A stretch of DNA of 32,000 bases, taken from assembly GCA_964574815.1 (NCBI GenBank), contig CAZNPL010000003.1:100861-132860 (forward strand), written 5' to 3'. The position numbers were made by a program, and so were the translations under genes. The notes under the pieces are model-generated. The model was not told the origin of the DNA, did no database searches, and saw nothing but the letters and a program-made list of their open reading frames with translations. This document shows positions 5,720-22,821 of this stretch, one piece after another. Each line of letters opens with the position of its first letter. Position 1 is the first letter of the stretch. This DNA comes from an uncultured Phycisphaeraceae bacterium (GTDB lineage: Bacteria > Planctomycetota > Phycisphaerae > UBA1845).

Positions 5720-5721
5720 TC

Positions 5722-6201: not shown

Positions 6202-6431
6202 CGCTCCGCGAACTGTTGTGGATGGCCGAAGCCCGCGGCCGAGAAGGCTGGGCGCATACGTCGGCGATCCTCACGTTGATCGCCAACGTGAACCGCGACC
6301 CTAAGAAGACCCGGCCCTTCAAGCCCAGCGACTTCGACCCCTACTCGGCGAAGGACCGGCGCGAGGATGCGATTGAAGTGAAAGACATGGCGGTCCTGCG
6401 GGACGCATTTAACCCCAACCCCGGAAGGTGA
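6149..6431 (+). CDS. Second tail chaperone-like reading frame, -1 relative to the 5722 gene (possible frameshift extension or overlapping gene; start approximate)
   Basis: From about 6149 the -1 frame reads VIYELAGVCGVDPGPLTLRELLWMAEARGREGWAHTSAILTLIANVNRDPKKTRPFKPSDFDPYS, which is clearly protein-like, and it ends just before the tape measure gene. Confidence 0.5.
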
Positions 6432-6441
6432 CGAGTGACGC

Positions 6442-8454
6442 ATGCCCCAGGCGGGAGCCATTCGAGCGGGTCGTGCGTTCGTCGAGCTGTTCGCCGACGA
6501 CAGCAAGCTCGTGCGCGGGTTGAAGCGCGCCCAGGCCAAGCTCAAAGCCTTCGGTGAAGGCGTCCGCAACTTGGGCCTCAAACTCGCCGGCCTGGGGTCG
6601 GCCATCGTCGCGCCGCTGATCGCTTCGACGAAGGTCTTCGCCAAGATGGGCGACGACCTTGCCAAGATGTCAGCGCGAACCGGCTTTTCCGTCGAATCGC
6701 TCTCCGAGTTGGGCTTCGCCGCCGAACTGTCGGGTACGAGCATCGAGGTGCTTGAGAACGGCATCCGCAAGATGCAGCGGACGATCGTGGACGCCGCCAC
6801 CGGTATGCAGAGCGCGCAGGAGGCGCTGTCGATCCTCGGTCTGACTGTCGCGGACCTCGACAAGCTTTCCCCCGAAGAGCAATTCAAGCTCATCGCCGAC
6901 CGGCTGGCCGCCATCGAGGACCCCACCCTCAAGGCCGCCGTCGCGATGGAGCTGTTCGGGCGCAGCGGAACGCAGCTTCTGCCCATGCTGAACGCCGGAG
7001 CGGCGGGCATCGAGCAACTTCAGGAACAGGCCCGCAAGCTGGGGCTGACCATCTCCACTAAAGACGCCAAGGCCGCCGAGCGCTTCACCGACACGCTTTC
7101 CATCATGTGGCGGGTGCTCAAGCAGAACGTCTTCGTGGTCGGCTCGGCCCTGGTGCCCGTGCTGACGCGAGCGGCGAACTGGCTGACGAACATCGCCGTG
7201 GTCGCGGCCGACTGGATCAAGCAGAACAAGGAACTGATCGTCACCATCTTCAAAGTGGCCGTCGCAACTGTCGGTGCGGGCGCGGCGCTGGTCGTGCTGG
7301 GCACTGCGATCACGGGTGTGGCGAAGGCGCTGGGCGTGCTGGCCGTCGTGATCACCGGGGTCGGGACGGCGCTCAAACTGCTCGGCGCGGTGCTTGCGTT
7401 TCTCGTCTCGCCCATCGGCCTGGTCATCACGGCTGTCGTGGCGCTCGGTGTCGCCATTCTTCACGTCACCGGCGCTGGCGCGAAGGCCCTGGGCTGGCTG
7501 GGTGAGAAGTTCAACGTGCTCAAGGAGGACGCCATCTCTGCCTATCAGGGCATCGCCGACGCCCTGGCCACCGGAGATATCGCCCTGGCGGCGAAGATTC
7601 TCTGGCTGACCCTGAAGATGGAGTGGACGCGGGGGATCAACTTCCTGGAGAAGGCCTGGCTCAACTTCCGCAACTTCTTCATCCAGATCGGCGTCGATGC
7701 GTGGCACGGTCTGCTCGCCGCCGTCGAGGTGGTCTGGCACTCCCTCCAGGTCGGGTGGATCGAAACGACGGCATTCCTCTCCAAGACCTGGACACAGTTC
7801 ACCAGTTGGGTGCAGGAGGCGTGGGCCTGGACGGGCCGGCAGCTCGCCAAGGCGTGGAACTTCCTGCGCAAGCAGTTCGATTCGAGCTTCGACGCGGACG
7901 CGGCGAACCGCGCCGCCGAGGAGTTCTACCAGTCGCGCAAGGCCCAAATCGAAATGCAGACCGGCCAGGCGCTCGCCGACCGCGAGGCCCAGCGACAGCG
8001 CGACCGTGAAAAGTCTGCACGCGACCACGAAGGTGCGATGGCCGAGATCGGCCGCGAGAACCTCGAAAAGCATCGAGAACTCGACGCCGAGTATGAACGG
8101 CGCATCGCCGAGAACGAGGCCGACCTCGCCCGGGCGCGGAAGGAGTGGCAGGACGCGCTGGCCGAGGCTCGGCGCAAACGTGCGGCCAAGGAAGCGGCCG
8201 ACGGGGCGGAAGAGATCGAAGGGCCGGAAGACCTGCTCGGCAAGATTCGCACGAGTCTTTCCGGCTTGGGCGATCTGCTCGAAACAGCGAAGGAACGCAC
8301 CATCAACGTGATCGGCACGTTCAACGCCTCGGCGCTGCTGGGCCTACAGGCTGGAAGCGCTGACGACCGCATCGCCAGCGCCACCGAGCGCACGGCCAAG
8401 GGAATCGACGGTCTGCGTCTGGACGTGCGCAACAACCGCGCGGCCTTTTCGTGA
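6442..8454 (+). CDS. Phage tail tape measure protein
   Basis: 670 aa. GxxIVAPLIASTKVFAKMGDDLAKMSARTGFSVESLSELGFAAELSG, central hydrophobic segments and a C-terminal coiled coil rich in E/R/K. Confidence 0.85.
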   Translation: MPQAGAIRAGRAFVELFADDSKLVRGLKRAQAKLKAFGEGVRNLGLKLAGLGSAIVAPLIASTKVFAKMGDDLAKMSARTGFSVESLSELGFAAELSGTSIEVLENGIRKMQRTIVDAATGMQSAQEALSILGLTVADLDKLSPEEQFKLIADRLAAIEDPTLKAAVAMELFGRSGTQLLPMLNAGAAGIEQLQEQARKLGLTISTKDAKAAERFTDTLSIMWRVLKQNVFVVGSALVPVLTRAANWLTNIAVVAADWIKQNKELIVTIFKVAVATVGAGAALVVLGTAITGVAKALGVLAVVITGVGTALKLLGAVLAFLVSPIGLVITAVVALGVAILHVTGAGAKALGWLGEKFNVLKEDAISAYQGIADALATGDIALAAKILWLTLKMEWTRGINFLEKAWLNFRNFFIQIGVDAWHGLLAAVEVVWHSLQVGWIETTAFLSKTWTQFTSWVQEAWAWTGRQLAKAWNFLRKQFDSSFDADAANRAAEEFYQSRKAQIEMQTGQALADREAQRQRDREKSARDHEGAMAEIGRENLEKHRELDAEYERRIAENEADLARARKEWQDALAEARRKRAAKEAADGAEEIEGPEDLLGKIRTSLSGLGDLLETAKERTINVIGTFNASALLGLQAGSADDRIASATERTAKGIDGLRLDVRNNRAAFS

Positions 8455-8462
8455 GATGATCC

Positions 8463-9275
8463 ATGCCGGTAACGCTCACCGAGAAACTCGACAGCCGCAA
8501 GTGGACCACCGGCGACAACGCCTCGGTGGAGATGGTCTATATCCTCACCGGTACGAGCGACGACCTCACCGCCAAGGTGCTGATCGAGAACTCCACGGCC
8601 ATCTACTACAATGGTCTGGTCCGCCAGTCGATCCAGATCGAGCCGGAGTGGGTGGACGAAACCACCGGCGAAGGCCAGTGGAACGCCACGGTGCGCTACG
8701 GCGTGCGGCCCCCGATCGAGGTGGGAGAGTCGTCGTTCGCCTTCGATACCTCCGGCGGCGCGCAGCACATCACCCAGTCGCTCGCGACCATCGCCAGTTA
8801 CGCCGCCAGCGGAACCCCTCCCAACTTCGGCGGCGCGGTCGGCGTCACCCACGACAGCGTCGAAGGCGTGGACATCACCATCCCGGTCTACAGTTTTTCG
8901 GAAACGCATTTCCTCGACGCCGCGTTCGTCACCCCGGCCTACTACGGCACGCTGTTCAACCTCACGGGCAAGGTCAACAACGCCTCGTTCAAAGGTTTGG
9001 CCGCTGGCGAATGCCTGTTTCTGGGTGCATCCGGCTCGAAGCGCGGCACGGAGGATTGGGAGATCACCTTCCGCTTCGCGGGTTCGCCCAACCGCACCGG
9101 CCTGGTGGTCGGTCCTATGACGGGCATCGCCAAGAAAGGCTGGGAGTATATGTGGGTCCGCTACGCGGACTCGGAAGACACCGTCGCCAAGGCCATCGTG
9201 AAGAAACCCGTCGCCGCCTACATCGAGCGCGTCTACGACGAAGGCGACTTCTCCCTGTTGGGCATCGGAGTGTAG
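8463..9275 (+). CDS. Phage tail-associated protein, unknown family
   Basis: 270 aa, immediately downstream of the tape measure gene, beta-rich composition. Confidence 0.5.
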   Translation: MPVTLTEKLDSRKWTTGDNASVEMVYILTGTSDDLTAKVLIENSTAIYYNGLVRQSIQIEPEWVDETTGEGQWNATVRYGVRPPIEVGESSFAFDTSGGAQHITQSLATIASYAASGTPPNFGGAVGVTHDSVEGVDITIPVYSFSETHFLDAAFVTPAYYGTLFNLTGKVNNASFKGLAAGECLFLGASGSKRGTEDWEITFRFAGSPNRTGLVVGPMTGIAKKGWEYMWVRYADSEDTVAKAIVKKPVAAYIERVYDEGDFSLLGIGV

Positions 9276-9278
9276 CCG

Positions 9279-10088
9279 ATGGCAGACGTGCTCAAGAAAG
9301 TCCAACGCGGCCAGCCGCTGGTCATTCCGGCGAGCACGTTCAACGCCTTCGTGGATGCTGCGCAGGATTTCCAGCGGCGGAAGCTGAGCCAGCAGAGCAC
9401 GGGCCAGTCCACCTCGCGCGACGCCGACGTGGCGATCGTCAAGAATACCAGCGGCGCGGACCGGGCCCGGTTTGAGATTCTGGGGATCAGCGCGCCGGTC
9501 TTCACTCCCACCGACAATCTCGACGAGTTCCGCAATCGGGTGGCGCTTTCCGGCGTGGTGCCCACGGCAGCCAACCACTGGGGCAAGTTCGTCGTCCTGG
9601 CCGAGCCGATTCGCAACGGCCTGCTCGGTCTGGGATGGCTGTCGGGCGTCTGCCCCGTGAAGATCGACATGGCCAACGCCAACCACTGGCACGCAGACGT
9701 TGCCGACAACTCCGCGGCCAATCTCAAAAGCGCCGGAGGCGGTGCGGCGCAGATTCTGTGGAAGGAGAGCGGCACCGGCGTGAAGTGGGCGGTGGTACGG
9801 CTGGGCCGCTGGTCGCCCACGGTGTTCCCGGTGAATCTGACGCAGACCGGGGGTTCGCAGGGCACGACCACGACGGCCGCCAGCTGGACGTACAGCGTCA
9901 TCGACCCCGTCACCAGCCAGACGCTGGCGACTGCCGTAAACCCCACCGTCTCGCCGCACAAATGGAAGCGGCCGTCGGCGGGCTGGATGATCGCGGCCAC
10001 CTTCGGCTACGCCCATTTCAACGCCCAGGCCCAGCTCGTGCTGGGTTGGATCAACGAGATGGTCGAGCAGGAAGCGTGCGCGAGTTGA
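9279..10088 (+). CDS. Phage tail-associated protein, unknown family
   Basis: 269 aa, 3 nt from the previous stop, coding-quality sequence. Confidence 0.5.
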   Translation: MADVLKKVQRGQPLVIPASTFNAFVDAAQDFQRRKLSQQSTGQSTSRDADVAIVKNTSGADRARFEILGISAPVFTPTDNLDEFRNRVALSGVVPTAANHWGKFVVLAEPIRNGLLGLGWLSGVCPVKIDMANANHWHADVADNSAANLKSAGGGAAQILWKESGTGVKWAVVRLGRWSPTVFPVNLTQTGGSQGTTTTAASWTYSVIDPVTSQTLATAVNPTVSPHKWKRPSAGWMIAATFGYAHFNAQAQLVLGWINEMVEQEACAS

Positions 10089-10100
10089 TGGAGCGACATC

Positions 10101-10532
10101 ATGCCCACGGCGGGAAAGGCAAGACTCTTCAAGGTTGGGAAGCGAAGCCTTCGGACCACCGGCAAGGCGCAGCTCTTTACCACCAGCGGCCGATGCTCGG
10201 AATGTTGCACGCCGTACGTGCTGGCCTCGTTCACCACCAACAGCAGCAACCCGACGTGGAACCTGACTCCCTACCAGGGCCCGGGCAAGGCCACGCCGTG
10301 CGCATTCTGGCGGTTGATCGAAACGGGTTCGTGCTATCCCTACTCGTACCCGTGGTACGGAGCCGGCTGCGTGGACAGCACGGGCCGCCTCGTCGGCCTG
10401 CCGAGTTCGTTCACCAGTCAGTACTCGTACAACGGCTACATGCAGCTCCAGATCGGTTGCCGCTCCGCCTCCGGCACGCAGATCAACTGGCCGGGATCAT
10501 GTCAATCCACGTCAAGCGTGTATTCCTGCTGA
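10101..10532 (+). CDS. Cysteine-rich hypothetical phage protein
   Basis: 143 aa with 9 Cys (SGRCSECCTPYVLASF...GSCYPYSYPWYGAGC...IGCRS...SCQS...YSC), in the same plus-strand gene train. Confidence 0.5.
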   Translation: MPTAGKARLFKVGKRSLRTTGKAQLFTTSGRCSECCTPYVLASFTTNSSNPTWNLTPYQGPGKATPCAFWRLIETGSCYPYSYPWYGAGCVDSTGRLVGLPSSFTSQYSYNGYMQLQIGCRSASGTQINWPGSCQSTSSVYSC

Positions 10533-10548
10533 GGAGAGGTAGATAACA

Positions 10549-11745
10549 ATGTTCGACACGATCCACGAACCCGACGTGATGACGCACATGCCATTCCTGA
10601 CCCGCCTGCCTGCGCCCGGGGACGGGCAGGCAGGCGACGGTCAGGGCAAGCGGGTGTTGTTCTACTGCCGATCCGGCCCGGAGGACTTCGACGCGCCCAC
10701 GCAGTCACGGCGATGGAAGCTGTGGGTCGTGGTCGAGGCCGATCAACCCCGACGACTCGAAACCGGCCTCAGCAACGACCTTGCCGAGTGCGCGCCGACC
10801 GCCTGGCACGATGCCACCGGCTGGCACGTGACCTTCATCGCCGGCGGCGCTCCGGACAACCGGCTGTACCACCTCTACCGCATGGATGGCCCGGACCTCG
10901 ACCGGCTGAGCCAGCCCGTGGCCATCCAGGCCACCCGCGCAGGCTTCGTGCTCGGCGACCGTCTCGTGTACGCCGACCCAGAAAACCTGATCTACGTCCG
11001 CCAGCCGTCGGGCGATTTCGACATCGAACTACCAGGCGCGTTCATCTACCGCGTGTCCTACCGCGCCGACGCGGCCGACAAGCTCCTGATCAGCGGCCAA
11101 TGGCAAACCGAGAGCGATGTCTTCGCCATCGAGTACGACCTGATCACCGGCGAGCAGCACCTGCTCGAATCCGACGGCCTGCCGGCCTACAAGTGCACCA
11201 TCCTCGACGACCAGGTCCTCTACGCCCAACGCATCGGCGTCGGCGAACACTTCGAAAACCGTCGGATCACCGCCTCTACCGCGCTGTCCCGCCGCCCCGT
11301 CAACACCATCGTCCGCCGCCAACCCGGCCAGGTCCAACCGATCGTCACGCAACCGACTGGCGACTGCGGCTGCCGTGGCCTCTCGGCAGCGACCGGCGCT
11401 CCTGCCGCACCGACAAGCATGCCCGCGCCGGATTCGCCCGATCCCAGCAGCGCCTCTTCCGAAGCGAGCCCCGAGCCTGTCCCCGTCACCCGCGCATCCT
11501 GCGCGCAATGTATCGAAAAGCACCTCGGGGCCGCCTACGTCCTGCTCACCGAAACGCGAGAAGGCTACGCCCACCGCCTGCGCGCCATCGGCCACCTGCA
11601 CGAAGCCGAGGACGAATCGCAGGAATTCGGTAACCTCCACACCGCCATCCGCGCCGCCCGCAAGGCCTTCCAAACCGACGGCACGATGCCCGACTGGGAA
11701 GCCCTCGCCCAAGCCACAGAAGTGGCTCGTCAGTCCGTACATTGA
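10549..11745 (+). CDS. Hypothetical phage-module protein with C-terminal Cys-containing helical domain
   Basis: 398 aa. Beta-rich N-terminal part (GAFIYRVSYRADAADKLLISGQW...), Pro/Ser linker, then SCAQCIEKHLGAAYVLLTETREGYAHRLRAIGHLHEAEDE. Last plus-strand gene of the module. Confidence 0.5.
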   Translation: MFDTIHEPDVMTHMPFLTRLPAPGDGQAGDGQGKRVLFYCRSGPEDFDAPTQSRRWKLWVVVEADQPRRLETGLSNDLAECAPTAWHDATGWHVTFIAGGAPDNRLYHLYRMDGPDLDRLSQPVAIQATRAGFVLGDRLVYADPENLIYVRQPSGDFDIELPGAFIYRVSYRADAADKLLISGQWQTESDVFAIEYDLITGEQHLLESDGLPAYKCTILDDQVLYAQRIGVGEHFENRRITASTALSRRPVNTIVRRQPGQVQPIVTQPTGDCGCRGLSAATGAPAAPTSMPAPDSPDPSSASSEASPEPVPVTRASCAQCIEKHLGAAYVLLTETREGYAHRLRAIGHLHEAEDESQEFGNLHTAIRAARKAFQTDGTMPDWEALAQATEVARQSVH

Positions 11746-11758
11746 CTCCGCGGCGTCG

Positions 11759-12229
11759 TCACTTCGCGCTCCCGGTTTCCAGGAACGCAGCAACGACGTC
11801 GCGTATTCTGTCACGGATTTGTCGGAACACGGCAAGTCTCTGTTCGTCCGATCCTTCAGTCATCGCCGGATCGGTGAACGGCCAGTGGAGCAGCCGCCTG
11901 GCTCCGGGGAAAACTGGGCAGGACTCCTTGGCGCTCTCGCACACCGTGACCACCAGGTCGAACGGACGGTTGCCAACCTCATCGATTCCGTTGCTTTGAT
12001 GCGCCGAGATGTCGATGCTGATTTCGTTCATCACCTTTATGGCCATGGGGTGGACGTAACCGGCCGGCCTTGAACCGGCCGAAAGCACTTCCCAATCGCC
12101 GCCACCGAGGGCCCGCCACAGTCCCTCTGCCATCTGCGACCGACAAGAGTTCCCCGTACAGAGGATCAATGCGCGCTGTCTATCTGATTCGCTGCCCATT
12201 CGTGCGGCCCCAATACGACCACTTTGCAA
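11759..12229 (-). CDS. arsC: Arsenate reductase, low-molecular-weight phosphatase type
   Basis: P-loop LILCTGNSCRSQMAEG, then LSAGSRPAGYVHPMAIKVMNEISIDISAHQSNGI and DLVVTVCESAKESCPVFPG (redox Cys pair region). Alternative start at 12199. Confidence 0.92.
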   Translation of the reverse strand: MQSGRIGAARMGSESDRQRALILCTGNSCRSQMAEGLWRALGGGDWEVLSAGSRPAGYVHPMAIKVMNEISIDISAHQSNGIDEVGNRPFDLVVTVCESAKESCPVFPGARRLLHWPFTDPAMTEGSDEQRLAVFRQIRDRIRDVVAAFLETGSAK

Positions 12230-12248
12230 CTATGGTGCGACGCCCCGG

Positions 12249-12500
12249 TCACAAATGAGCAACGGCTGATTCCAGTGCCAGCCTGGCCATTCCCAACTTG
12301 AGGCAGTCCTCGAATTCCGGGCACCGAACGCAATCGTCCTACGCCTTCGCATCGAGACCGGTGCGCCGCGCTCCACGATACATTCCGCCCGCGGTGCGGA
12401 GCTCATACCAGAATACCTTTCCGCGCACCGGCTGGTCGATCGCATGGTCCAGGATTTCGGGCATCATTGCTCCGTAACAGGCTGAATGTTCCTTATCAGC
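12249..12500 (-). pseudogene. Small Cys-containing conserved-looking protein interrupted by an in-frame TAG
   Basis: Minus-strand ATG at 12500: MADKEHSACYGAMMPEILDHAIDQPVRGKVFWYELRTAGGMYRGARRTGLDAKA*DDCVRCPEFEDCLKLGMARLALESAVAHL*. The same frame remains protein-like after TAG (12339-12341) and ends at TGA (12249-12251). Confidence 0.6.
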
Positions 12501-12551
12501 CATGGGTTTCCCTTCACAAGATGCACTCATTCGGATGGCCCGCGCCAATCT

Positions 12552-13283
12552 TCATTGCGTCGCGCCCTGCGATATCGATTCTCTGCAAAACGCTCCGTTG
12601 CCTCCCGGAGTCACGACCCCCTCGTCTGACGGAATACGTCCCGCCTCGAGCTTCAGTGTTCGCTTCGCGCGGGCAGCCGCGCGGGGGTCATGGGTGACCA
12701 TCACGATCGTGCGGCCTTCGCGGTTCATGTCTCCGAGTAGATCGAGGATATGCCGACCCGTTTCCGGGTCGAGATTGCCCGTGGGCTCGTCGGCGAGGAT
12801 GATCTCCGGATCGTTGGCCAAAACTCGTGCAAGGGCCACGCGCTGCTGTTGACCGATGCTCAATTCCGATGGCTTGTGGTCAAGCCGGTCGCCGAGTCCG
12901 ACGCGCTCCAGAAGCTCCGCTGCACGTTCCTTCTGCTCCGCCGAATCCAAGCCTGCTAGGAACAGCGGGATCTGCACGTTCTCCAGCGCCGTCAGGTATG
13001 GCACCAAATTGAACGTCTGGAACACAAACCCGATCTTCTGCCGACGGAGACCAGCGCGCTGGTTCGGCGCCAGGTCATAGAGCGAGTGCCCATTGAGGAA
13101 AACCTTGCCTGCCGAAGGGGTGAGCATTCCGCCCAGAACCAGGAGCAGGGTGCTTTTCCCGCTGCCGCTGGGCCCGGTGACCGAGACGAAATCGCCGGTC
13201 TCGATCTCCAGCGATGCATTATCCAGGGCGGCGATGGTTCGCCCCCGGTGCGAGTAACTCTTGCTGACGGATTCAAGTCGCAT
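12552..13283 (-). CDS. ABC transporter ATP-binding protein (MacB/LolD-like)
   Basis: Walker A GPSGSGKST, signature LSIGQQQR, Walker B IILADEPTGNLD, H-loop VTHD. Confidence 0.92.
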   Translation of the reverse strand: MRLESVSKSYSHRGRTIAALDNASLEIETGDFVSVTGPSGSGKSTLLLVLGGMLTPSAGKVFLNGHSLYDLAPNQRAGLRRQKIGFVFQTFNLVPYLTALENVQIPLFLAGLDSAEQKERAAELLERVGLGDRLDHKPSELSIGQQQRVALARVLANDPEIILADEPTGNLDPETGRHILDLLGDMNREGRTIVMVTHDPRAAARAKRTLKLEAGRIPSDEGVVTPGGNGAFCRESISQGATQ

Positions 13284-13289
13284 CGTGCT

Positions 13290-14513
13290 TCAAACCTCCT
13301 GTAAGGTGGCACAAGGGTCCAGCCGCGCGGCCCGCCGCGCCGGGAAATAGCTTGCCGCCAGCGCAATCACCACCGAGATACCCAGCGCCCAGACGAAGAG
13401 AACTGGCATGGGCAACACGGGGACACCCGCCAAGCGCGGGCCGAGGCCAACCGCGAGCACCGTGCCCAACAGGTAGCCGCAAATACCGCCGGCGAGGCCC
13501 AGGAGAAGGGCTTTCAGAAGGAACATATTCAGGATCAAGGATGTTCCGGCTCCGAGGGCCATTAGCGTCCCGATCTCCCGCCGCCGCTCGAAAACATTCG
13601 CGTACATGTAGTTGGCGATGCTCGCCCCGCCCACCAGCACGATGATGCCGACGAAGACCAGCGACAACCGGGCCATCATGCGGTTGGTGGTCACCTGCGT
13701 ATCGACGACCTGCGTCACCGTAACGACCTTGGCCTCGGGCAACAGTTTGTTGACCTTCTGCACCAGCCCGCCGGCGATTGCCTTGCAGCAGCCGACAATT
13801 TCGATCGCATTGATCACCGGACCCTTGCCCGCTAGCTCCTGAACCGTGTGCAGGTGCGCGAAGATACGCGAATCATCAACCGTGCCGGTCTCGGGCAGGA
13901 CGGCTGTAATCTCGAACGTTCGGCCGAGCACATCCAGCGCGTCTCCCTCTTTCACGCCGACAATCGACGCGACATCGGCGCCGATGAGCACTTCTTTGTC
14001 ACTCAAATCATCGACGACTCGCTGCCGAACGAGCGTTTCTTTGGCTTCGGGGTGCGTCGCGCCCGGAAGATCGGGTATGGTCCCGCAGCCTTCCGCCGGG
14101 TGGGCAAAAATACCCGCACCGGCCCACATGGCCTTGGCCTGGAACTCGCTCTTGGGGAGGATGCCGGTTAGCGTGAACGAGCGATCGCGCAGCATCACGG
14201 GCACCGACAGCTTGGGCGAGAGGTTGTCCAGCCCCTCCAGGTCGGACATCGCCAGGCGCAGAACGTATTCCTCGGGGAATTCGTCGCTTTGCATGTCGGC
14301 GCTGTAATAGTCCTGAATCGTGACCGACTTGGGAAGGACCAGCACATTGGCGCCGAGTCCGTCTAGCTGCCGGGCAACCGCCTTCTCGGAATAAAACGTA
14401 ATGTTCTTGATGGATACGACAACGGTGATGCCGAGCAGTATGGCCAGAAAGCTTGTAGCCAATTGGTTCTTGCGCTCGAACATCTCCCGCCATACGAGTT
14501 TTCGCAGGTGCAT
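13290..14513 (-). CDS. FtsX/MacB-type ABC transporter permease
   Basis: N-terminal TM (LATSFLAILLGITVVVSI), large extracytoplasmic domain, C-terminal three TMs with MMARLSLVFVGIIVLVGGASIANYMYANVFERRREIGTLMALGA. 6 nt from the ATPase gene. Confidence 0.9.
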   Translation of the reverse strand: MHLRKLVWREMFERKNQLATSFLAILLGITVVVSIKNITFYSEKAVARQLDGLGANVLVLPKSVTIQDYYSADMQSDEFPEEYVLRLAMSDLEGLDNLSPKLSVPVMLRDRSFTLTGILPKSEFQAKAMWAGAGIFAHPAEGCGTIPDLPGATHPEAKETLVRQRVVDDLSDKEVLIGADVASIVGVKEGDALDVLGRTFEITAVLPETGTVDDSRIFAHLHTVQELAGKGPVINAIEIVGCCKAIAGGLVQKVNKLLPEAKVVTVTQVVDTQVTTNRMMARLSLVFVGIIVLVGGASIANYMYANVFERRREIGTLMALGAGTSLILNMFLLKALLLGLAGGICGYLLGTVLAVGLGPRLAGVPVLPMPVLFVWALGISVVIALAASYFPARRAARLDPCATLQEV

Positions 14514-14529
14514 ACGGGTCCCTTTCAGT

Positions 14530-15435
14530 TTACGGCTTCTTTACCGCGACGCCTGATGGGGTCTGAGGTTGCGAATTCGCCGGCTTGTTGCCCCCGCACG
14601 TGCTCGTGCCGCCGCCGCAGCAGCCGCCGCCCTTGGGTGGCGTTGCCGCCGCCACGATTGTGTTCTTGTCGGTCGCTCCTACGAACGTGCCCATGACCTT
14701 TCCAGGCGGCGCCAGCAAAACCGTGACCGCCTCCGGGTGGCTCTCACCGAGCCCAAACATCGTCAGGAAATCCACCTCATTCGCATCACTCGGATCAACC
14801 GTGACGACTTCGACGGATCGGGCGTACCGCGGATCCGCCACAAACTCACGTACCCCCTGCAACGCCTGGTCATTGAACTCAGTTTCTGCGTTTTGAACAC
14901 ATAATAGGACATACTTGCGATCCTGAAGCGCTTTCAGGCTCTTTTCGGCGCCCGGGCTGACGAACGCGGCGCGGAGTTGCTGCTCATCGAAGTTCGTGGT
15001 GAAACTCCGAGTGACGGCGCCGCTGGGTCCCATGGCAAGCACAAGCGGCATCGGCGCACGAGACAATCCGTATTTCGCCACCAGCGTCCGCTCCCGGACG
15101 TCCGTGACGTTCACGTCTGCGGAGTCCGCTCGATCTTCTAGGGCTTTCATCCCTGCGTCGAACGCCATGTGTGCAGCCCGTGTGGGCTCGTCATCGGCTC
15201 GATAGAAGAACAGGAAAGTGTACTTGCCGGCCATTGCCGCCCGGTCCATGATTGAGGCGGCGGATTCACTCATGCTATCGCCCGCGTTGCCCGCACCCGG
15301 AATGACGCTGTTCTCGACGGGCGCACCGTCGTTGATTGCGCTGGCGGGTGAATCACTCTGACCCAACGCAATGTTCCCGGAGAAAAGCACCGAAACCATT
15401 GCTACCATCGCTTCTGGGACCCACTTACGAGTCAT
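14530..15435 (-). CDS. Exported thioredoxin-fold-like protein with C-terminal CCGGG/CGG tail
   Basis: Likely start at 15435 (MTRKWVPEAMVAMVSVLFSGNIALGQ, signal peptide-like). Two Trx-like segments (KYTFLFFYRADDEPTRAAH...VNVTDVRERTLVAKYGLSRAPMPLVLAMGPSGAV; KYVLLCVQN...) without a CxxC active site. Ends PPKGGGCCGGGTSTCGGNKP. Confidence 0.65.
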   Translation of the reverse strand: MTRKWVPEAMVAMVSVLFSGNIALGQSDSPASAINDGAPVENSVIPGAGNAGDSMSESAASIMDRAAMAGKYTFLFFYRADDEPTRAAHMAFDAGMKALEDRADSADVNVTDVRERTLVAKYGLSRAPMPLVLAMGPSGAVTRSFTTNFDEQQLRAAFVSPGAEKSLKALQDRKYVLLCVQNAETEFNDQALQGVREFVADPRYARSVEVVTVDPSDANEVDFLTMFGLGESHPEAVTVLLAPPGKVMGTFVGATDKNTIVAAATPPKGGGCCGGGTSTCGGNKPANSQPQTPSGVAVKKP

Positions 15436-15549
15436 CACTGGTTCTCCATGCCACGTACATTCCGCGTTCTTCCTCCAGTCGCTGCGCACCCGTCGTGGCG
15501 TAAGCCGCGCCGACCGGAACATCTTCTCGAATACCGCGCCCCGCGCGGA

Positions 15550-16053
15550 TCACATCCGTTTGTCGTGTGCTGGTTGCCCCTCAATTTCGCGGCGTGTTTT
15601 CCCTTGCGAAGTCGCCCGCGCGAAACCGCGCCCCTTCCCGGTCCGCGTCGCCGTTCCGTTTCGCCCCGCCTTGGCAGCCGGTGACTTTCGATGCCCATTG
15701 CCCGAAACACACTCGCCGCAGCGCCGGTTGCGCCCTTGGAGCGTTTGAAGAGCTTTCAGATCCGCAGCCGTCTGCGGAAAATCCGCCACCGTTTCCGCCA
15801 GCCATTCCACAACGCGCCGGTGCGTGGGCCCGTTCGGCTTCGCCAGGGAGTAGTACATCCACACGCCGTTGCGGCGGTCTTCGACGAGTCCGACGTTTCG
15901 CAAGTGCGCCAGGTGCCGCGAGGCTTTGGACTGCCCGATGTCGAGCACCGTGGTGAGATCGCACACGCACAACTCCCCCCGCGCAAGCAGGTTCAAGATG
16001 CGGAGGCGGGTCTCGTCAGCCAGCGAGCCAAAGAGTCGGGCAATGTTCTGCAT
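15550..16053 (-). CDS. arsR: ArsR/SmtB-family transcriptional repressor with basic C-terminal extension
   Basis: LFGSLADETRLRILNLLARGELCVCDLTTVLDIGQSKASRHLAHLRNVGLVEDRRNGVWMYYSL, with the ELCVCDL arsenic-sensor type motif. Confidence 0.9.
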   Translation of the reverse strand: MQNIARLFGSLADETRLRILNLLARGELCVCDLTTVLDIGQSKASRHLAHLRNVGLVEDRRNGVWMYYSLAKPNGPTHRRVVEWLAETVADFPQTAADLKALQTLQGRNRRCGECVSGNGHRKSPAAKAGRNGTATRTGKGRGFARATSQGKTRREIEGQPAHDKRM

Positions 16054-16070
16054 GAATAAACTCCGGTACC

Positions 16071-16094
16071 GTTTATGCGTATATACGCATTAAC
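16071..16094. promoter_or_regulatory. Near-perfect 24-bp palindrome, candidate ArsR operator
   Basis: GTTtATGCGTATATACGCATtAAC: perfect 16-bp core ATGCGTATATACGCAT (16075-16090), one mismatched pair in 24 bp, 17 nt upstream of the arsR ATG (16053). Confidence 0.65.
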
Positions 16095-16325
16095 AAATAT
16101 AATAGCGGCACAACCCTGCCCCTGTCAACCCTGATTTCAGCACTCAGCGTAACGCTGCGGTAACGCCTCTCGCGGCCCCCATGCTGGGCGAAACGCCCCG
16201 GCGTACCGCCCTAATTAACCGTCGTAGCCCGCCGGTATTCTCGGATGGGTGTTGCCACGTCCCTCTCAGACACCTCTTCAAACCATCCGCAGTTTCGTTT
16301 GCAAAACGGCCACGCGGGCTGGGCA

Positions 16326-17198
16326 TCACGAACATTTCGGCGGGACCAGCAAAGTGGGCACGATCGTGCGGCGGGCGACATGGAGAGCGACGCTGCCCAT
16401 GAACAACTCGCCAAAATAGCCGCGGCCTTGGGTGCCCATGACAATCAGCGAGTAATCGCCCTGCTCGGCGCGTTGGACGATCTGCTGCTTCGGCAGGCCG
16501 TACGGCAGCTCAATGCTCACCGCCGCTGCGCCCAGTTTCTTCAGACGATCCTCCATGCGTTCCAGCCGTTCGCGGTCGATACGGTTGAACCCATCGAGTT
16601 TGTCCTTGAGGTCGCCGTAGATGCGGCTCTTGTCCTGAACATGCAGGAGCGTTACGCGCCGACCGCCGCTGCGAACGATATCTTCGACGTAGAGGAATGC
16701 GTGTTCGGCGGTATCGGAAAAGTCGGTAGGAAACAACATGTGATCGTGGAAGTCGGTGCAGATCATTTCGCAGCGGTGCTCGGCCTCTTCGGCGATCCGA
16801 AGTTGCGCGATAAACACAGGCACCTCTGCATGATGGGCCACTTCCTGGGCCACGCTGCCCAGCAGCACCTCGCGGGCCAATGTCGCGCCGTGCGAACCGA
16901 TGACAATCATGGAGGCCTGTTTCTCTTTGGCCACTCGCTGAATCTCCCAGGACGGAATGCCCGGGGCGATGACGATTTCGACGGAGAATCCTTGATTCTC
17001 GAGCGTCTGTTTCTGTTGGCAGAGCTTGGGTTCGACCGACGGCGCGAGTAGGTGCTTCATCTCTTCAAGGTGGCGGATACCCAAGGCATGGGTGAGGATG
17101 ACCCGCTCTGTTCCCATCGGTTTCAGACCGTGCAGACAACTGATGATTCGATCGGACGCGGGGGACAGGTCGGAGGCGACGATGGCGGTTTTGAACAT
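16326..17198 (-). CDS. Tandem universal stress protein (two Usp domains)
   Basis: 290 aa. Repeats of ASMIVIGSHGATLAREVLLGSVAQEVAHHAEVPVF and YSLIVMGTQGRGYFGELFMGSVALHVARRTIVPTLLV. Confidence 0.88.
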   Translation of the reverse strand: MFKTAIVASDLSPASDRIISCLHGLKPMGTERVILTHALGIRHLEEMKHLLAPSVEPKLCQQKQTLENQGFSVEIVIAPGIPSWEIQRVAKEKQASMIVIGSHGATLAREVLLGSVAQEVAHHAEVPVFIAQLRIAEEAEHRCEMICTDFHDHMLFPTDFSDTAEHAFLYVEDIVRSGGRRVTLLHVQDKSRIYGDLKDKLDGFNRIDRERLERMEDRLKKLGAAAVSIELPYGLPKQQIVQRAEQGDYSLIVMGTQGRGYFGELFMGSVALHVARRTIVPTLLVPPKCS

Positions 17199-17223
17199 GG
17201 CGATTCTCCTTGTCTAAGCGGCA

Positions 17224-18420
17224 TTAGCGACGGTGCTCGGCGCCCGAAACCAGTTGCCGCGTGGTATCGCAGGATTCCTGTTCAGCGACGGCGACAGCGA
17301 CGACTGTGGCGGATACATCGCCGTCTGGATGGACTTTGCCTCCATAAAACTTGCGGAGGAAGAACAAACTTACATGCACCAGGCCGATCAGGACCGGCAC
17401 CTCGACCAGCGGGCCGACGACGGTGGCGAAGGCGACCGGAGAGCCGATACCGAAAACCGCGATCGCGACGGCAATCGCCAGTTCGAAGTTGTTGCCCGAT
17501 GCGGTGAACGCCAGCGTCGCGGCGCGGGCATAATCCACGCCGATCTTCCAGGCCATGAAGAAGCTGACCAGGAACATGATGGCGAAATAAGCACTCAACG
17601 GGATTGCGATCCAAAGCACGTCCAGCGGTTGCGCGATGATCCGCTCGCCCTGCGTGGAGAACATCACGACGATCGTGAACAGCAGCGCCGAGAGCGTGAT
17701 CGGGGAAATCTTCGGCACAAATACGCGGTCGTACCAGTCACTGCCCTTGAGCGGCACGAGAATCACGCGGCTGAGAATCCCCGCGGCGAAGGGGATGCCC
17801 AGGTAGATCATCACGCTGACGAAAATCTCGCCGATACTCACCTCGACCACGGATCCCGTTAACCCGAATAGCGGGGGCAACACGGTCACGAAGATCCATG
17901 CATAGAAGCCAAACGTGACGATCTGGAAAATGCTGTTGAGCGCCACCAGCCCGGCGGCGTATTCGCTGCTGCCCCGGGCAAGCTGATTCCACACCAGCAC
18001 CATCGCGATGCAACGAGCGATGCCGACCATAATCAGGCCGGTCATGTACAAACCCCAGCGTTCGTCCGGGCCGAACAACGCCGGGGCGATAAACCCGAAG
18101 AAGACGATCGCCAGCACGAACATTAGCACCGGCCCGACGATCCAATTCTGCATCAGCGACAGGCCCACCACCTTCACGTCCGCGAAGACCTTGGGCATCA
18201 GCTCGTACTTCACCTTCGCCAGCGGCGGGTACATCATCAGGATCAGCCCGACGGCGATGAGCAGGTTCGTATGCTCACCCACGGTCAGCGCGTGGTTGAA
18301 GCGTTCAACGCCCGACTGGAAGAAATAGCCGATCGCCACGCCAACAGCCATGGCCGCGAAGATCCAGACCGTCAGGTAGCGGTCGAGCAGGGACAGTTTC
18401 CTGGTGATTCCTGGTTCCAT
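17224..18420 (-). CDS. acr3: ACR3-family arsenite efflux permease
   Basis: [103 protein letters not shown]. Confidence 0.95.
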
Positions 18421-18444
18421 ATTTTGAGCATCCTTTCAGTCGAT

Positions 18445-18885
18445 TCAGCGTTGCCGACGTTTGATCAGTCGGACGCACCTGCCCTTTCGGCAGAAGCTGA
18501 TTCTGTCTAGAAGAGACTGCATCAGGAGCAGCCCCCGTCCATGGGCGAGTTCGAGGTGTCGCGCGTCGGTCGGATCAGCAACCAGCGAGGGATCGAATCC
18601 CTCCCCTTCATCGATCACGCGGATTTCCGCCTCGTCATCGGCGATATGGTACTTGACAACGATCCATTTGTCGGGCACGCGGTGGTTGCCATGTAAATAT
18701 GCGTTGGCGAGGGCCTCCGAAAGGCCGAGCGTAAGAGCAAAGACCTCGGACTCCGAGCATTGTCTGCGCACCGCCTCAGCCGTTATCTCCGAGCGTACGT
18801 TGGCAATCTCCGAGTGCGTACTATGAATCGCCACTGTCTTGAAGTTCTTCACTCGGTGCTCTCGATCTTCGTCAGTCGCCTTCAT
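18445..18885 (-). CDS. HATPase-fold serine/threonine kinase, anti-sigma (RsbW)-like
   Basis: VFALTLGLSEALANAYLHGN (N-box) and EIRVIDEGEGFDP (G1 box), HGRGLLLMQSLLDRI. Confidence 0.82.
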   Translation of the reverse strand: MKATDEDREHRVKNFKTVAIHSTHSEIANVRSEITAEAVRRQCSESEVFALTLGLSEALANAYLHGNHRVPDKWIVVKYHIADDEAEIRVIDEGEGFDPSLVADPTDARHLELAHGRGLLLMQSLLDRISFCRKGRCVRLIKRRQR

Positions 18886-18910
18886 GGTTCGCTCCTCGAC
18901 GCGATTCCTT

Positions 18911-19936
18911 TCAAGACGTCCTTTCGCAGGCTTCGGTCAGCTCCCTCAGCGATGGGTAGCTACCCTGTTTAATGATCTGACCATTGATTATCGTAATAGG
19001 CAGTTCGCTCGATCCTCGGCCCTCTTTCATGGCGCTCACAACGGTCTTGTTCTCCATGAATTTGTGGGGCTCCTTGTTGGGCACGACGCGATGGACAGCG
19101 ATGACGTTTCCAACCCGGCGCTCTAGGTGGGTGAGGGCTTGGTTAAAACGCATGAGTTCCTCGTACAAATCGGGACCGCACATCCCGCTAACGCAACACA
19201 TGGGCGGCGTAAACACTTCGATGGTCATATCGTAGCTGTCCGGCATTTGTGTCTCCGCGATATTGTGTATCTCGACCTCCGCCTGCCGGTCGGGGCGCGT
19301 CGCTGTTACTTCGCGGTCATCCCGCTTCAACGGAGGGACTCTGACCACGAAATTACTTACAAATCCGGAATCGTATTGCCGGAACTCAAGTTGCAGCCCA
19401 TCGAGAATGGCTGCAATTGCGTCGACGCGGCATGGGTTTTCGTAATGAGACTCGCCGCGTTCGGCGTTCTCGGCTCGTACCGCCAACAGGCCGCGGGAAT
19501 TGAGGTCAGCGATCGCGAGTACCCCCGACGGTCGGCACACGCGCACCATCTCCTCGAGAGCCGCGCGACAGTCCGGCATGTGATGTATCGAGTCGAACGA
19601 GAATACGGCGTCGAACGTCGCGGCAGCGAGCGGCAACCGCAGCGCGTCGGCATGGATGAAATCAACGCGGGCGGCAACATCCGAACCAACGGCCTTCAAT
19701 CGCTGCCGAGCGCGATCAAGCACACCTCGGTCGATATCCACGGTCACGACATTGAAACCGCGCTCGGCCAGGATCATCGCCATCCACCCCGAGCCTGTCC
19801 CGACGTCCAACACGTGTGACCCGGGAATGTCCCCGACCAATCGCACAAGGTCTGATCGGGCACGGACAGTATCGAAGCCGTACCGTTCCTTCAGCGCCTG
19901 CATGCTCGGTGTGACTCGATCCGTTTTCTCGGCCAT
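18911..19936 (-). CDS. Class I SAM-dependent methyltransferase fused to a C-terminal ArsD-like domain
   Basis: Probable start at 19936 (MAEKTDRVTPSMQALKERYGFDTVRARSD) within track ORF 18911-20170. Motif I VLDVGTGSGWMAMILAE, FDAVFSFDSIHHMPD, then ArsD-like IEVFTPPMCCVSGMCGPDLYEELMRFN...FMENKTVVSAMKEG...LPITIINGQIIKQGSYPSLREL. Confidence 0.85.
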   Translation of the reverse strand: MAEKTDRVTPSMQALKERYGFDTVRARSDLVRLVGDIPGSHVLDVGTGSGWMAMILAERGFNVVTVDIDRGVLDRARQRLKAVGSDVAARVDFIHADALRLPLAAATFDAVFSFDSIHHMPDCRAALEEMVRVCRPSGVLAIADLNSRGLLAVRAENAERGESHYENPCRVDAIAAILDGLQLEFRQYDSGFVSNFVVRVPPLKRDDREVTATRPDRQAEVEIHNIAETQMPDSYDMTIEVFTPPMCCVSGMCGPDLYEELMRFNQALTHLERRVGNVIAVHRVVPNKEPHKFMENKTVVSAMKEGRGSSELPITIINGQIIKQGSYPSLRELTEACERTS

Positions 19937-20004
19937 ATTACGACTCCCGCGAGCGTCCCCTACGCGACGATTTCCGGCAATCTCTTGCACGATTGCTGTG
20001 CCCT

Positions 20005-20226
20005 TCAACCGCTCGTCTCGCGTTGGCCACACAACTCTCTCGACCCACGCGGATCTGCTACCACGGGCCGAGCGCTCTCCGAGGCGCAGTTCGGACATCG
20101 TATCCGATGGTCCTTTCCATACGCTGCCGACCTGGCCATGGAGGCATGGGACTCGAACAACTCGAAGCACTCGTCGCAGAAGTAGCAGTTCACCGATAGG
20201 TGTTTTTCGGTAACGCGCCTTTTCAT
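20005..20226 (-). CDS. Small putative zinc-ribbon-like protein
   Basis: 73 aa ORF between two confident same-strand genes: YFCDECFELFESHASMARSAAYGKDHRIRCPNCASESARP, two CxxC knuckles. Starts 26 nt after the arsA stop. Confidence 0.45.
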   Translation of the reverse strand: MKRRVTEKHLSVNCYFCDECFELFESHASMARSAAYGKDHRIRCPNCASESARPVVADPRGSRELCGQRETSG

Positions 20227-20251
20227 GACAGTTTCCTTTCAGGTTTGGCGA

Positions 20252-22042
20252 TCAGACGTTCGCGACCGTCTCGACCGCTGGTTGGGTCAACTCGCGCAGC
20301 CGATCGGGACCGATTGGTTCCTCGATCAGCCAGGGCGAGAGGGCCAAACGCTTCGCATGCCCGTCTCGTACCTTCTGAATCTGCAACTGCTCGGATCTGG
20401 CCCGCGCCACCAACAGCGGATCGCTTGGTCCGGCCGCGGCCAACGACGCATTAATGATCCAGGCCCATGGTTCAATCTTTGCCCGACGCAGGTCTTCCTG
20501 GAGGGCTGCGGCCTCCAGCACGGGTGTCGTCTCCGGCAGCGTGACGATCAGAATCTTGGTCTGCTTCGGATCTTGAAGCCGCATCAAAGGCGTGACGATC
20601 CTGGTCCCCGCTTTGAGGTGTCGCACGATGTCGCGGTGATACGAGCCGGTCGCATCTAACAACAACAGCGTATGGCCGGTCGGCGCCGTATCCATGACAA
20701 CGAACTTCTGTTGCGCTTCGCGGATGATCTTCGAGAATGCCTGGAACACGGCGATTTCTTCGGTGCAGGGCGAGCGCAGGTCTTCTTCCAGGAGTGCCCG
20801 GCCTTGTTCGTCGAGGTCGGCCCCCTTCGTCGCAAGCACATGCCGGCGATAGCGATCGGTCTCAGCTTGCGGGTCAATCCGGCTGATCTCCAGGCGATCA
20901 ACCCGCGATTCGATGGTCGAGGCCACGTGTGCCGCGGGGTCGGTGGTGGTCAGATGCACATCATGTCCGCGCGACGCCAATTCTACCGCCACGGCCGCGG
21001 CGATGGTCGTCTTGCCGACGCCGCCCTTGCCCATGACCATCACCAGCCCATGCCCGTCCGCCTCGATCTCGTCCACGAGCTGGCCAAGCGACGGAACATC
21101 GGTCGACGGCAGTGGCGTCTGTGGTTCAGATGCGTCTACCGCGAAACCCGTCGGCTGCAACAACCGGCGCAGCGCCGCAACTCCGACGAGGTTTCCCGGT
21201 TGCAGAAACACACGGTCGGTCTGTAAGTCGTTGAGCCGCTCCGGCAAAGATTCCATTGCCTGTCGATCGCGTTGCTGCATGGCGTAAGCGAGCGGATCAT
21301 CGCTTGAGACTTGCGGCATCAGGCCGTTGATGATCAACCGTTGATTCTTGACGCCCAGCGCCGCCAGTTCCGCGCTGGTGCGCGCCGCCTCGTTCAATGC
21401 CGCCGTCTGTGGGCGACCGACCAGGATCAACGTCGTACGCGAGGGTTCGGCCAGCGCATCGACCGCGGCTTTGTACTGCTGCCGCTGCTTTTCCAAGCCC
21501 GCCAGGGGGCCGAGACAGGATGCGCCATTCTGGTTGCTATCCAGGAAGCTCGACCAGGCGCTTGGCAGCCTCAGCAGACGCAGCGTATGGCCGGTCGGCG
21601 CGGTGTCGAAAATAACGTGGTCGAATCCGGCGGTCTTCCGTTCATCCGCCAACAGCGCGGTGAACTCATCGAACGCCGCAATCTCCGTCGTGCATGCCCC
21701 GGAAAGCTGTTCCTCCATGCTGCGGACGGCCTTCTCCGGCAGTGCGCCGCGCACCGGTCCAACGATACGGTCACGATAGCTCTGCGCAGCGGACTCCGGG
21801 TCGATGTTCAAAGCCCAGAGATTGGGCACGGCCGGGATCGGCGTGGGCGCATGTTCACCGATGTCAATCTCGAAGACATGCGCGAGATTGGACGCGGGGT
21901 CGGTGCTCACCAGGAGCACGCGCTTGCCCTCGTCGGCCAGCTGCACCGCCGTTGCACAAGCCAGGGACGTCTTGCCCACCCCGCCCTTGCCGGTGAAAAA
22001 CAAGTATCGCGTAGACTGATCATACCAGGTCATCGCAACCAT
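20252..22042 (-). CDS. arsA: Arsenite efflux ATPase ArsA, tandem NTPase domains
   Basis: Two P-loops, FFTGKGGVGKTSLACATA and VMGKGGVGKTTIAAAVAVELA, and two DTAPTGHTL(R/L)LL motifs. Start chosen at MVAMTWYDQSTRY inside track ORF 20252-22114. Confidence 0.93.
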   Translation of the reverse strand: MVAMTWYDQSTRYLFFTGKGGVGKTSLACATAVQLADEGKRVLLVSTDPASNLAHVFEIDIGEHAPTPIPAVPNLWALNIDPESAAQSYRDRIVGPVRGALPEKAVRSMEEQLSGACTTEIAAFDEFTALLADERKTAGFDHVIFDTAPTGHTLRLLRLPSAWSSFLDSNQNGASCLGPLAGLEKQRQQYKAAVDALAEPSRTTLILVGRPQTAALNEAARTSAELAALGVKNQRLIINGLMPQVSSDDPLAYAMQQRDRQAMESLPERLNDLQTDRVFLQPGNLVGVAALRRLLQPTGFAVDASEPQTPLPSTDVPSLGQLVDEIEADGHGLVMVMGKGGVGKTTIAAAVAVELASRGHDVHLTTTDPAAHVASTIESRVDRLEISRIDPQAETDRYRRHVLATKGADLDEQGRALLEEDLRSPCTEEIAVFQAFSKIIREAQQKFVVMDTAPTGHTLLLLDATGSYHRDIVRHLKAGTRIVTPLMRLQDPKQTKILIVTLPETTPVLEAAALQEDLRRAKIEPWAWIINASLAAAGPSDPLLVARARSEQLQIQKVRDGHAKRLALSPWLIEEPIGPDRLRELTQPAVETVANV

Positions 22043-22088
22043 TCCTTTCCAAGTCGTCGTCCATCCGTTCCCATTCGCCACTCGCGCC

Positions 22089-22703: not shown

Positions 22704-22821
22704 CGTAAGTTTCCTTCCTGTTCAGGGTTGCCCGCGGGCTCATACACCCGTTGCTTTATCCCCGTGGTGTCCTCGTTCACTTCCACGTTCGCACCTGTCG
22801 ACCGACGCAGCCGGCGGCGGA

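Follow-up and report, generated by a model that had tools for sequence, protein, structure and literature searches.

A conserved TrxL-FtsX-ABC triad linked to bacterial ars genes, and its candidate role in handling arsenite in the periplasm

Introduction

We analysed a 32,000-nucleotide stretch of DNA from an uncultured Phycisphaeraceae bacterium (GenBank assembly GCA_964574815.1, contig CAZNPL010000003.1, positions 100,861 to 132,860; hereafter the window), in which neighbouring minus-strand genes encode an exported thioredoxin-like protein (TrxL), an FtsX-type permease and an ATP-binding cassette (ABC) ATPase within an arsenic-resistance (ars) island. As judged by comparison with related loci, the conserved unit is the TrxL-FtsX-ABC triad, with ArsR, ArsC and a small cysteine-rich protein as variable neighbours, and the triad is very probably linked to arsenic or metalloids. 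The function that we modestly favour is that of an ArsR-controlled, ATP-driven module, which would handle periplasmic As(III)/Sb(III) by thiol ligand exchange as an accessory to the arsenite efflux permease ACR3. The evidence for function is comparative throughout.

Results and discussion

The triad is conserved among ars genes in distant phyla

The permease was used to scan one genome per GTDB species, and relatives with 63-87% identity were found in 80 species-level genomes, all of them metagenome-assembled; no cultured isolate was seen among these loci. The permease gene is thus real and not a chance open reading frame (ORF), and the same follows for TrxL from the approximately 800 homologues returned by a homology search. 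Neighbourhoods were analysed in 80 loci (the window and 79 related loci, individually denoted by L numbers), these being the loci most similar to the query permease; ORFs were called in each locus and searched with the proteins of the window. Many of the contigs are short, and the 32 loci flanked on each side by 6 kb or more were therefore also treated separately. The loci derive from about ten phyla and mostly from Planctomycetota, the other sources being Eisenbacteria, Acidobacteriota, Krumholzibacteria, Hydrogenedentes, WOR-3, Desulfomonilaceae, Syntrophaceae, Desulfobacteraceae and Victivallales, and many record titles name anoxic or sulfidic sites (fen, peat, a sulfidic cave, a meromictic lake and the Black Sea at 150 m).

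TrxL was encoded directly upstream of the permease in 78/80 loci and the ATPase directly downstream in 76/80, while both were present within 6 kb in all 32 well-flanked loci. ArsR was found within 3 kb of the permease in 61/80 loci and ACR3 within 6 kb in 47/80. When only the well-flanked loci were considered, ArsR and ACR3 each occurred within 6 kb in 25/32 and ArsC in 16/32, with ACR3, ArsC or ArsD present in 27/32. Every ACR3 match was strong (E<=3e-26), and the occurrence of ACR3 in 25 of 32 loci has a rough binomial probability of ~1e-46 if a generous chance rate of 0.008 per locus is allowed. The loci display more than 50 distinct gene orders (for example ArsR-ACR3-triad, triad-ArsR-ACR3, ArsC-ArsR-triad-ACR3 and ACR3-ArsC-small-triad), in which the triad remains intact while ArsR, ACR3 and ArsC switch sides. 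Unbiased clustering of the remaining neighbour ORFs recovered only ars-island families, namely Thioredoxin_3, DsbD/CcdA, ArsP_1, DGC and ArsA, all of which are typical of the ars islands of anaerobes; Mer, Cop, Czc and P-type ATPase families were not among the clusters.

An earlier sequence-only reading of the window had proposed an uncharacterised, metalloid-linked, thiol-based ABC module and had suggested a gene-neighbourhood analysis of the permease subfamily as a check. The conserved ars association reported here, with the triad lying repeatedly among arsR, acr3 and arsC across phyla, bears that proposal out, and the same-strand ArsR, exported Trx-like protein, FtsX permease and ABC ATPase that it described are real genes in which all of the quoted motifs are present.

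A further exported protein of 423 residues, with thioredoxin, NosL-like and MerB-like (alkylmercury lyase) parts, was observed near the triad in L070 (5885-7156) and in seven other loci, where it co-occurs with genes for ArsP_1 permeases, DGC-domain proteins, Thioredoxin_3 and DsbD/CcdA.

TrxL is an exported tandem thioredoxin-fold protein with a three-cysteine tail

TrxL belongs to a family of 927 representative clusters (50% identity, E<=1e-3) and carries a Sec-type signal peptide (MTRKW...ALG/Q); lipoboxes occur in some homologues. Its AlphaFold2 (AF2) model has a core predicted with high confidence (pLDDT ~97, residues 60-265) followed by a disordered C-terminal tail, and Foldseek matched the model with a probability of 1.00 to tandem thioredoxin proteins, including the P. 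furiosus PDO (1a8l), the N-terminal domain of AhpF, the bb' domains of protein disulfide isomerase (PDI) and ERp44. Thus the thioredoxin fold is present; the CxxC/CxxS active site, however, is absent from both domains, the stretches at the corresponding positions being FFYRADDEPT and LLCVQNAETE. The cis-Pro loops (RAPMPL and LAPPG) and a single conserved core cysteine, C179, are retained.

The tail of the window protein, GGGCCGGGTSTCGG, is Gly-rich and contains three cysteines arranged as CC...C. Tails of the family are Gly/Pro-rich and variable in sequence, as in GCGPGGCGPGGC, CDPKSGCC and CGPNCSCHH, and their cysteine count is the conserved property: exactly three were found in 76 of the 92 TrxL proteins encoded at the loci and in 71 of 149 diverse representatives at 50% identity, another 36 of which have at least four. 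Around 17 loci encode two tandem TrxL paralogues, each bearing its own three-cysteine (Cys3) tail. TrxL gave no match to the ArsD models PF06953 and NF033727. Two other identities were considered and rejected: the tail is not a C-terminal sorting signal of the MYXO-CTERM or exosortase type, as no hydrophobic helix follows the cysteines, and a precursor resembling those of ribosomally synthesised and post-translationally modified peptides was discarded, as no modifying enzymes are linked.

The permease is a divergent type VII ABC protein with invariant periplasmic cysteines

The permease matched the FtsX family (PF02687, 64.6 bits; cut-off 25.5) and MacB_PCD (PF12704, 29.3 bits; cut-off 27), and a profile search matched it to MacB, LolE, YtrF, LolF and FtsX chains, the transmembrane (TM) region being closest to the MacB structures 5nik and 5lil. 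With its C-terminal FtsX TM domain, large extracytoplasmic domain between TM1 and TM2 and cognate ATPase, it is a member of the type VII ABC (MacB/FtsX/LolCE) superfamily. ADOP is also among its best family matches; its scores nevertheless fall far under every curated Lol, MacB and FtsX equivalog cut-off. It is therefore neither a LolC/LolE equivalog (TIGR02212, 43.4 bits against a cut-off of 362) nor an FtsX equivalog (NF038347, 22.2 against 225; TIGR00439, 20.6 against 255). As there is a single permease gene, the protein is presumably a homodimer.

Its periplasmic domain, of approximately 230 residues, is divergent and contains AIEIVGCCKAIAGG. The pair C242-C243, in the motif IE.VGCC, is present in 80/80 sequences, and C143, in P..GCG, in 79/80, the exception having a cysteine shifted by two residues; generic FtsX paralogues in L022 have none of the three. 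In the AF2 model, which is of low confidence (pLDDT 58, with the cysteine segments below 50; the alignment is shallow, at 72-87% identity), the CC pair lies at the helix start of the last beta-alpha-beta unit before TM2. Both the Cys tail of the signal-peptide protein and the CC pair of the permease, which had been picked out from the window alone, are therefore conserved features.

The ATPase matched ABC_tran (E=2.9e-35), and its best NCBIfam matches were LolD, YbbA, MacB and FtsE (E 1e-63 to 1e-69). It scored 232.8 against the LolD cut-off of 307.75 (TIGR02211) and is thus not a LolD equivalog, and its catalytic motifs are intact (Walker A, LSIGQ, ILADEPT and the H-loop, THD). The description of the two proteins as a MacB/LolD-like ABC pair accordingly holds at the level of family.

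A proposed periplasmic arsenite relay

As(III) and Sb(III) are bound trigonally by three thiolates, as seen in ArsR, ArsD and ArsA, and MacB/LolCDE-type transporters work on substrates at the periplasmic side. Given two independently conserved periplasmic Cys3 sets, together with ArsR control and ACR3 adjacency, the most economical reading of the triad is a periplasmic arsenite relay. In such a relay, As(III)/Sb(III), the substrate that we infer, would reach the periplasm through ACR3 or by diffusion, where the three thiols in the flexible tail of soluble TrxL would capture it. The chaperone would then dock onto the periplasmic domain of the homodimeric permease, where the metalloid would be exchanged between thiol ligands to or from the C143/C242/C243 site, and cytoplasmic ATP hydrolysis, acting through type VII 'mechanotransmission', would drive its release or expulsion and reset the chaperone. 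The relay would thereby protect periplasmic thiol proteins. Thiol ligand exchange between the tail and the permease could equally well prove right or wrong, and any direction and final fate assigned to the metalloid is doubtful. The wider proposition, that the triad constitutes an unrecognised and widespread class of arsenic resistance in which a Cys3-tailed Trx-fold metallochaperone passes As(III)/Sb(III) to the Cys3 site of a type VII ABC transporter, we advance tentatively and with slightly more doubt than confidence.

The sequence-only reading had also noted the lack of an arsenite permease. This applies only within the interval that it considered (12249-16053), for ACR3 lies just upstream on the same strand, together with ArsA and two ArsD domains. 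Because these three are encoded upstream, the ABC module would be accessory to a canonical ars system and not a substitute for its permease.

The relay has parallels in several known systems. One is ArsD-ArsA(B), where a Trx-fold protein devoid of CxxC, with three cysteines that include a vicinal pair (Cys12/13/18 in ArsD), feeds an ATP-driven machine with a Cys3 site of its own (Cys113/172/422 in ArsA), and where, as for the triad, the genes lie in ars operons under ArsR. TrxL, however, does not match ArsD in sequence, is exported, contains a pair of Trx domains and carries its cysteines on a disordered C-terminal tail; instead of the cytoplasmic ArsA it would work with a type VII ABC permease/ATPase at the periplasmic side, and the window encodes a true ArsD and ArsA in addition. 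LolCDE-LolA, too, pairs an FtsX-type permease with an ATPase of the LolD kind, needs no membrane-fusion protein and relies on a soluble partner of its own in the periplasm, but the triad has one permease gene, a partner of the Trx rather than the LolA fold, and an ars rather than an envelope-biogenesis context, and the invariant periplasmic cysteines of its permease are absent from Lol proteins. MacAB-TolC offers the closest solved TM homologues, a detectable MacB_PCD domain and mechanotransmission on periplasmic substrates; in contrast to it, the triad has no linked MacA-like adaptor or TolC-like channel, its ATPase is a separate polypeptide and its periplasmic domain is divergent (29 bits).

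Two further systems resemble the relay in logic. In CusF-CusCBA a thiophilic ion is cleared from the periplasm by a pump that receives it from a small metallochaperone, but the pump is of the resistance-nodulation-division (RND) type, the chaperone has another fold and Met/His/Trp ligands, and Cus has a full outer-membrane conduit where the triad has none. In NosDFY-NosL ATP hydrolysis drives a periplasmic metal hand-over and not transmembrane transport, which makes it a possible model for an ATP-reset chaperone cycle, although NosY is not FtsX-type, the system serves copper/N2O reductase maturation and its proteins are not homologous to those of the triad. By the comparisons made here, the triad belongs to none of the ArsD-ArsA, LolCDE-LolA, CusF-CusCBA and NosDFY-NosL families.

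Points against the relay, and alternative readings

Several observations weigh against a periplasmic arsenite relay. No outer-membrane route is encoded in cis, as a search within 6 kb found HlyD-like ORFs in 4/80 loci and no OEP-like ORF (0/80). ACR3, ArsC and ArsD are all absent within 6 kb in 5/32 well-flanked loci, and L001 (GCA_022839625.1) has no ars genes in approximately 8 kb on each side, with DUF1573/DUF2703 partners instead. The permease cysteines, in a poorly modelled domain, could instead form a structural disulfide. Finally, a CVC site is also found in ArsR/SmtB regulators that respond to Cd, Pb and Zn.

The alternative that survives best retains the architecture and changes the substrate to an organoarsenical or a thio-arsenic species (methylarsenite, aromatic arsenicals or the thioarsenates of sulfidic habitats). 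Of the 32 well-flanked loci, 14 encode a class I methyltransferase within 6 kb; 11 loci have an ArsP_1 permease and eight the Trx-NosL-MerB-like protein, and the many anoxic or sulfidic source records mentioned above are consistent with such substrates. We consider them unlikely nonetheless: three cysteines are kept in both the tail and the permease domain while methylarsenite needs two thiols, and the commonest partners, ACR3 and ArsC, act on inorganic arsenic.

It is a little less likely again that the triad serves another thiophilic metal (Cd, Hg, Pb, Cu(I) or Zn) or reactive sulfur species, with the ars genes merely co-resident. The regulators do leave room for this, since ArsR/SmtB proteins with an alpha-3 CVC site include Cd/Pb/Zn sensors and weak matches to the CmtR and BigR models of NCBIfam were obtained; moreover, an RND pump adjoins the island in the window and the L001 variant has ars genes nowhere within 8 kb. 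The recurrent neighbours are, however, ars-specific (ACR3 in the large majority of well-flanked loci, with ArsC, ArsD, ArsA and ArsP), the clustering gave none of the families expected of other metals, and RND/HlyD genes occur in only 4-7/80 loci.

Marginally lower still we place a role in redox maintenance or envelope repair, according to which TrxL would be a thiol holdase or decoy for arsenite-damaged periplasmic proteins, and the FtsX/ATPase pair would regulate or recycle it without any movement of metalloid. FtsEX-type complexes control periplasmic partners by conformation, the TrxL fold resembles the substrate-binding domains of PDI (bb') and ERp44, CcdA/DsbD and Thioredoxin_3 genes recur nearby, and an outer-membrane exit is not encoded. 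Such a role nevertheless leaves unexplained the invariant Cys3 of the permease and the conserved count of three tail cysteines, and the FtsX models score an order of magnitude under their cut-offs.

A generic LolCDE/MacB-type housekeeping transporter lying near ars genes by chance is very improbable and largely refuted. The best family matches are LolD, MacB, ADOP and LolCE, and MacB and LolE structures can be aligned with the TM region; yet the scores are far under the equivalog cut-offs, only one permease is encoded, linkage to ars genes persists across phyla and gene orders in the loci compared, and invariant cysteines and a dedicated TrxL partner set the family apart.

The ars island of the window

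ORF calling and profile searches showed the minus strand from 11759 to 23196 to be one continuous ars island of 11.5 kb, transcribed in the order arsR2, ArsD-CMD, arsA, methyltransferase-ArsD, RsbW-like, ACR3, Usp and then arsR1-TrxL-FtsX-ABC-small gene-arsC (Table 1). ArsR and ACR3 score above their cut-offs, ArsA and ArsD are present, and ArsC has the catalytic cysteine pattern, with CX5R and a Cys97/Cys104 pair (24/29/97/104 in all). The arsC product matched LMWPc (E=5.6e-20) and, under the cut-off of 174, TIGR02691 (141 bits). The gene had been counted as the last of the 12249-16053 interval, but it lies outside it, 12249 being the stop codon of the small gene; that an ArsR with an arsenic-type CVC motif leads the set was correct.

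Table 1. Genes and regulatory sites of the ars island, in order of transcription (coordinates of the window)
Feature	Position	Strand	Remarks
arsR2	22822-23196	minus	second ArsR; upstream end of the island
arsD-CMD fusion	22089-22703	minus	ArsD domain joined to a CMD/AhpD-like domain
arsA	20252-22114	minus	arsenite ATPase gene upstream of ACR3
class I methyltransferase + ArsD, single ORF	18911-20170	minus	Methyltransf_11 E=5.4e-25; ArsD E=2.7e-23
RsbW-like HATPase_c_2 protein	18445-18885	minus	anti-sigma-type kinase; inside the ars island
ACR3	17224-18420	minus	arsenite efflux permease; TIGR00832 407.5 bits (cut-off 282.8)
Tandem universal stress protein (Usp)	16326-17198	minus	Usp E=9.9e-43
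sigma-70-like promoter	16099-16128	minus	TTGACA, 18-nt spacer, TATTAT; 11/12 consensus positions
24-bp palindrome	16071-16094	.	GTTAATGCGTAT|ATACGCATAAAC; candidate ArsR operator
arsR1	15550-16053	minus	ArsR/SmtB repressor
TrxL	14530-15435	minus	exported Trx-like protein; Sec-type signal peptide, two thioredoxin-fold domains
FtsX/MacB_PCD permease	13290-14513	minus	type VII ABC; four TM helices
ABC ATPase	12552-13283	minus	LolD/MacB/FtsE clade
small Cys-rich gene	12249-12503	minus	84 codons, in-frame TAG
arsC	11759-12229	minus	low-molecular-weight protein tyrosine phosphatase type, thioredoxin-coupled; likely start ATG at 12199

The window has two unusual ArsD fusions, one in which a methyltransferase precedes ArsD and one in which ArsD is joined to the CMD/AhpD-like domain. 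The methyltransferase is nearest the DVU_1556 family and is not a canonical ArsM. ACR3 is flanked by the Usp and RsbW-like genes, and a Usp gene is again found beside ACR3 in L064.

On the plus strand, positions 18-11745 are occupied by a prophage structural module (a head protease/major capsid fusion, a tail completion protein, a tape-measure protein and others), whose end is separated from the arsC stop codon by 13 bp; the window has neither a tRNA gene nor an obvious att site to account for the junction. Since no relatives of the permease were found in viral contigs (IMG/VR), and PLSDB plasmids yielded only FtsX proteins with less than 25% identity to it, the triad module is not evidently phage- or plasmid-borne, despite adjoining a prophage. 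At its upstream end the island is abutted by a separate system, an OEP-HlyD-AcrB tripartite RND efflux operon (23946-29907, minus strand); this adjacency is probably incidental, because so few triad loci have RND/HlyD genes nearby.

The arsR1 transcription unit and its small cysteine-rich gene

The promoter in Table 1 is the only strong sigma-70-like site between 11600 and 16500 and sits in a 272-bp gap upstream of arsR1. The palindrome begins 4 nt past its -10 box and stops 17 nt short of the arsR1 ATG, which is preceded by GGAG. It is kept in the clade closest to the window, and in L006, L011, L016, L053, L067 and L080 a similar box, TATcCGaATATaCGgATA, precedes the triad-linked arsR by approximately 35 nt. 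Spacing within the unit is tight, with 16 nt between TrxL and FtsX and 6 nt between the FtsX stop and the ATPase start, and the minus strand showed no terminator-like site. On this layout, arsR1-TrxL-FtsX-ABC-(small gene)-arsC looks like an ArsR-repressed transcription unit of its own.

The arsR1 product matched HTH_5 (E=2.5e-18) and NF033788 (95.7; cut-off 55), and its alpha-3 site, ELCVCDL, is kept as ELCVC in most triad-linked ArsR proteins. ArsR1 is also some 50 residues longer than typical ArsR proteins and bears, in its C-terminal part (15550-15720), an RCGEC motif, which recurs as RC(G/x)xC in its closest relatives and is possibly a second sensing site.

The small cysteine-rich protein had been taken for a member of the module. 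Its gene is present; however, it represents a separate, ars-linked family of 181 unannotated proteins of 83-86 residues, with invariant C9, C58, C61 and C67 and no Pfam match, whose genes directly follow ACR3 in ars clusters of other genomes and occur in L079 (7381-7632), L044 (7768-8103) and L088-L090 (6001-6261). The window copy retains C9, a CxxC and C67 but has an in-frame TAG at 12339-12341, where homologues carry Trp, as fits a TGG-to-TAG change, and it is on that account probably a pseudogene.

In the clade closest to the window (L005-L011 and L026; 12030-12611 in L001) the ATPase gene is followed by one for a DUF2703 lipoprotein with CxxC and CxxCC, at the place where the window, which has no DUF2703, carries the small gene and arsC. 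A tblastn search revealed no similarity to DUF2703 in the window, and the small ORF was thus rejected as a DUF2703 remnant. DUF2703 has been reported from a Rhodococcus ars cluster (PMC6514093), the only mention of it in an arsenic context that we found in the literature. The L001 operon (5937-14580) runs ArsR(CVC)-DUF1573-DUF1573-like-TrxL-TrxL-FtsX-ABC-DUF2703 and ends in a coiled-coil membrane protein of 599 residues.

Novelty and implications

No curated NCBIfam or Pfam model names the permease subfamily or TrxL, which are annotated in the source records as 'hypothetical proteins' or as a generic 'ABC transporter permease', and full-text literature searches found no description of the triad. 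Its building blocks belong to known families, while no earlier account appears to exist of the system, of its ars linkage or of its paired Cys3 features. The relay hypothesis lends itself to direct testing: the cysteines concerned are six and defined, the genes are three and small, and the ArsR promoter is clean and has a candidate operator. The module could also yield new components for biosensing or sequestering arsenic.

Bacterial arsenic resistance is usually framed as a cytoplasmic process, in which arsenic is sensed, reduced and pumped out. Uncultured Planctomycetota and other phyla are the main source of TrxL family members, many of which were sampled, by their record titles, where conditions are anoxic or sulfidic. 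If the relay operates as proposed, the triad would be an extracytoplasmic equivalent of ArsD-ArsA and, among systems that work by ABC mechanotransmission, the first devoted to a metalloid. The known range of MacB/FtsX-type 'mechanotransmission' transporters would then take in a metalloid that is served by its own protein chaperone, and arsenic resistance would gain an extracytoplasmic layer in the form of conserved, ATP-consuming handling of periplasmic arsenite.

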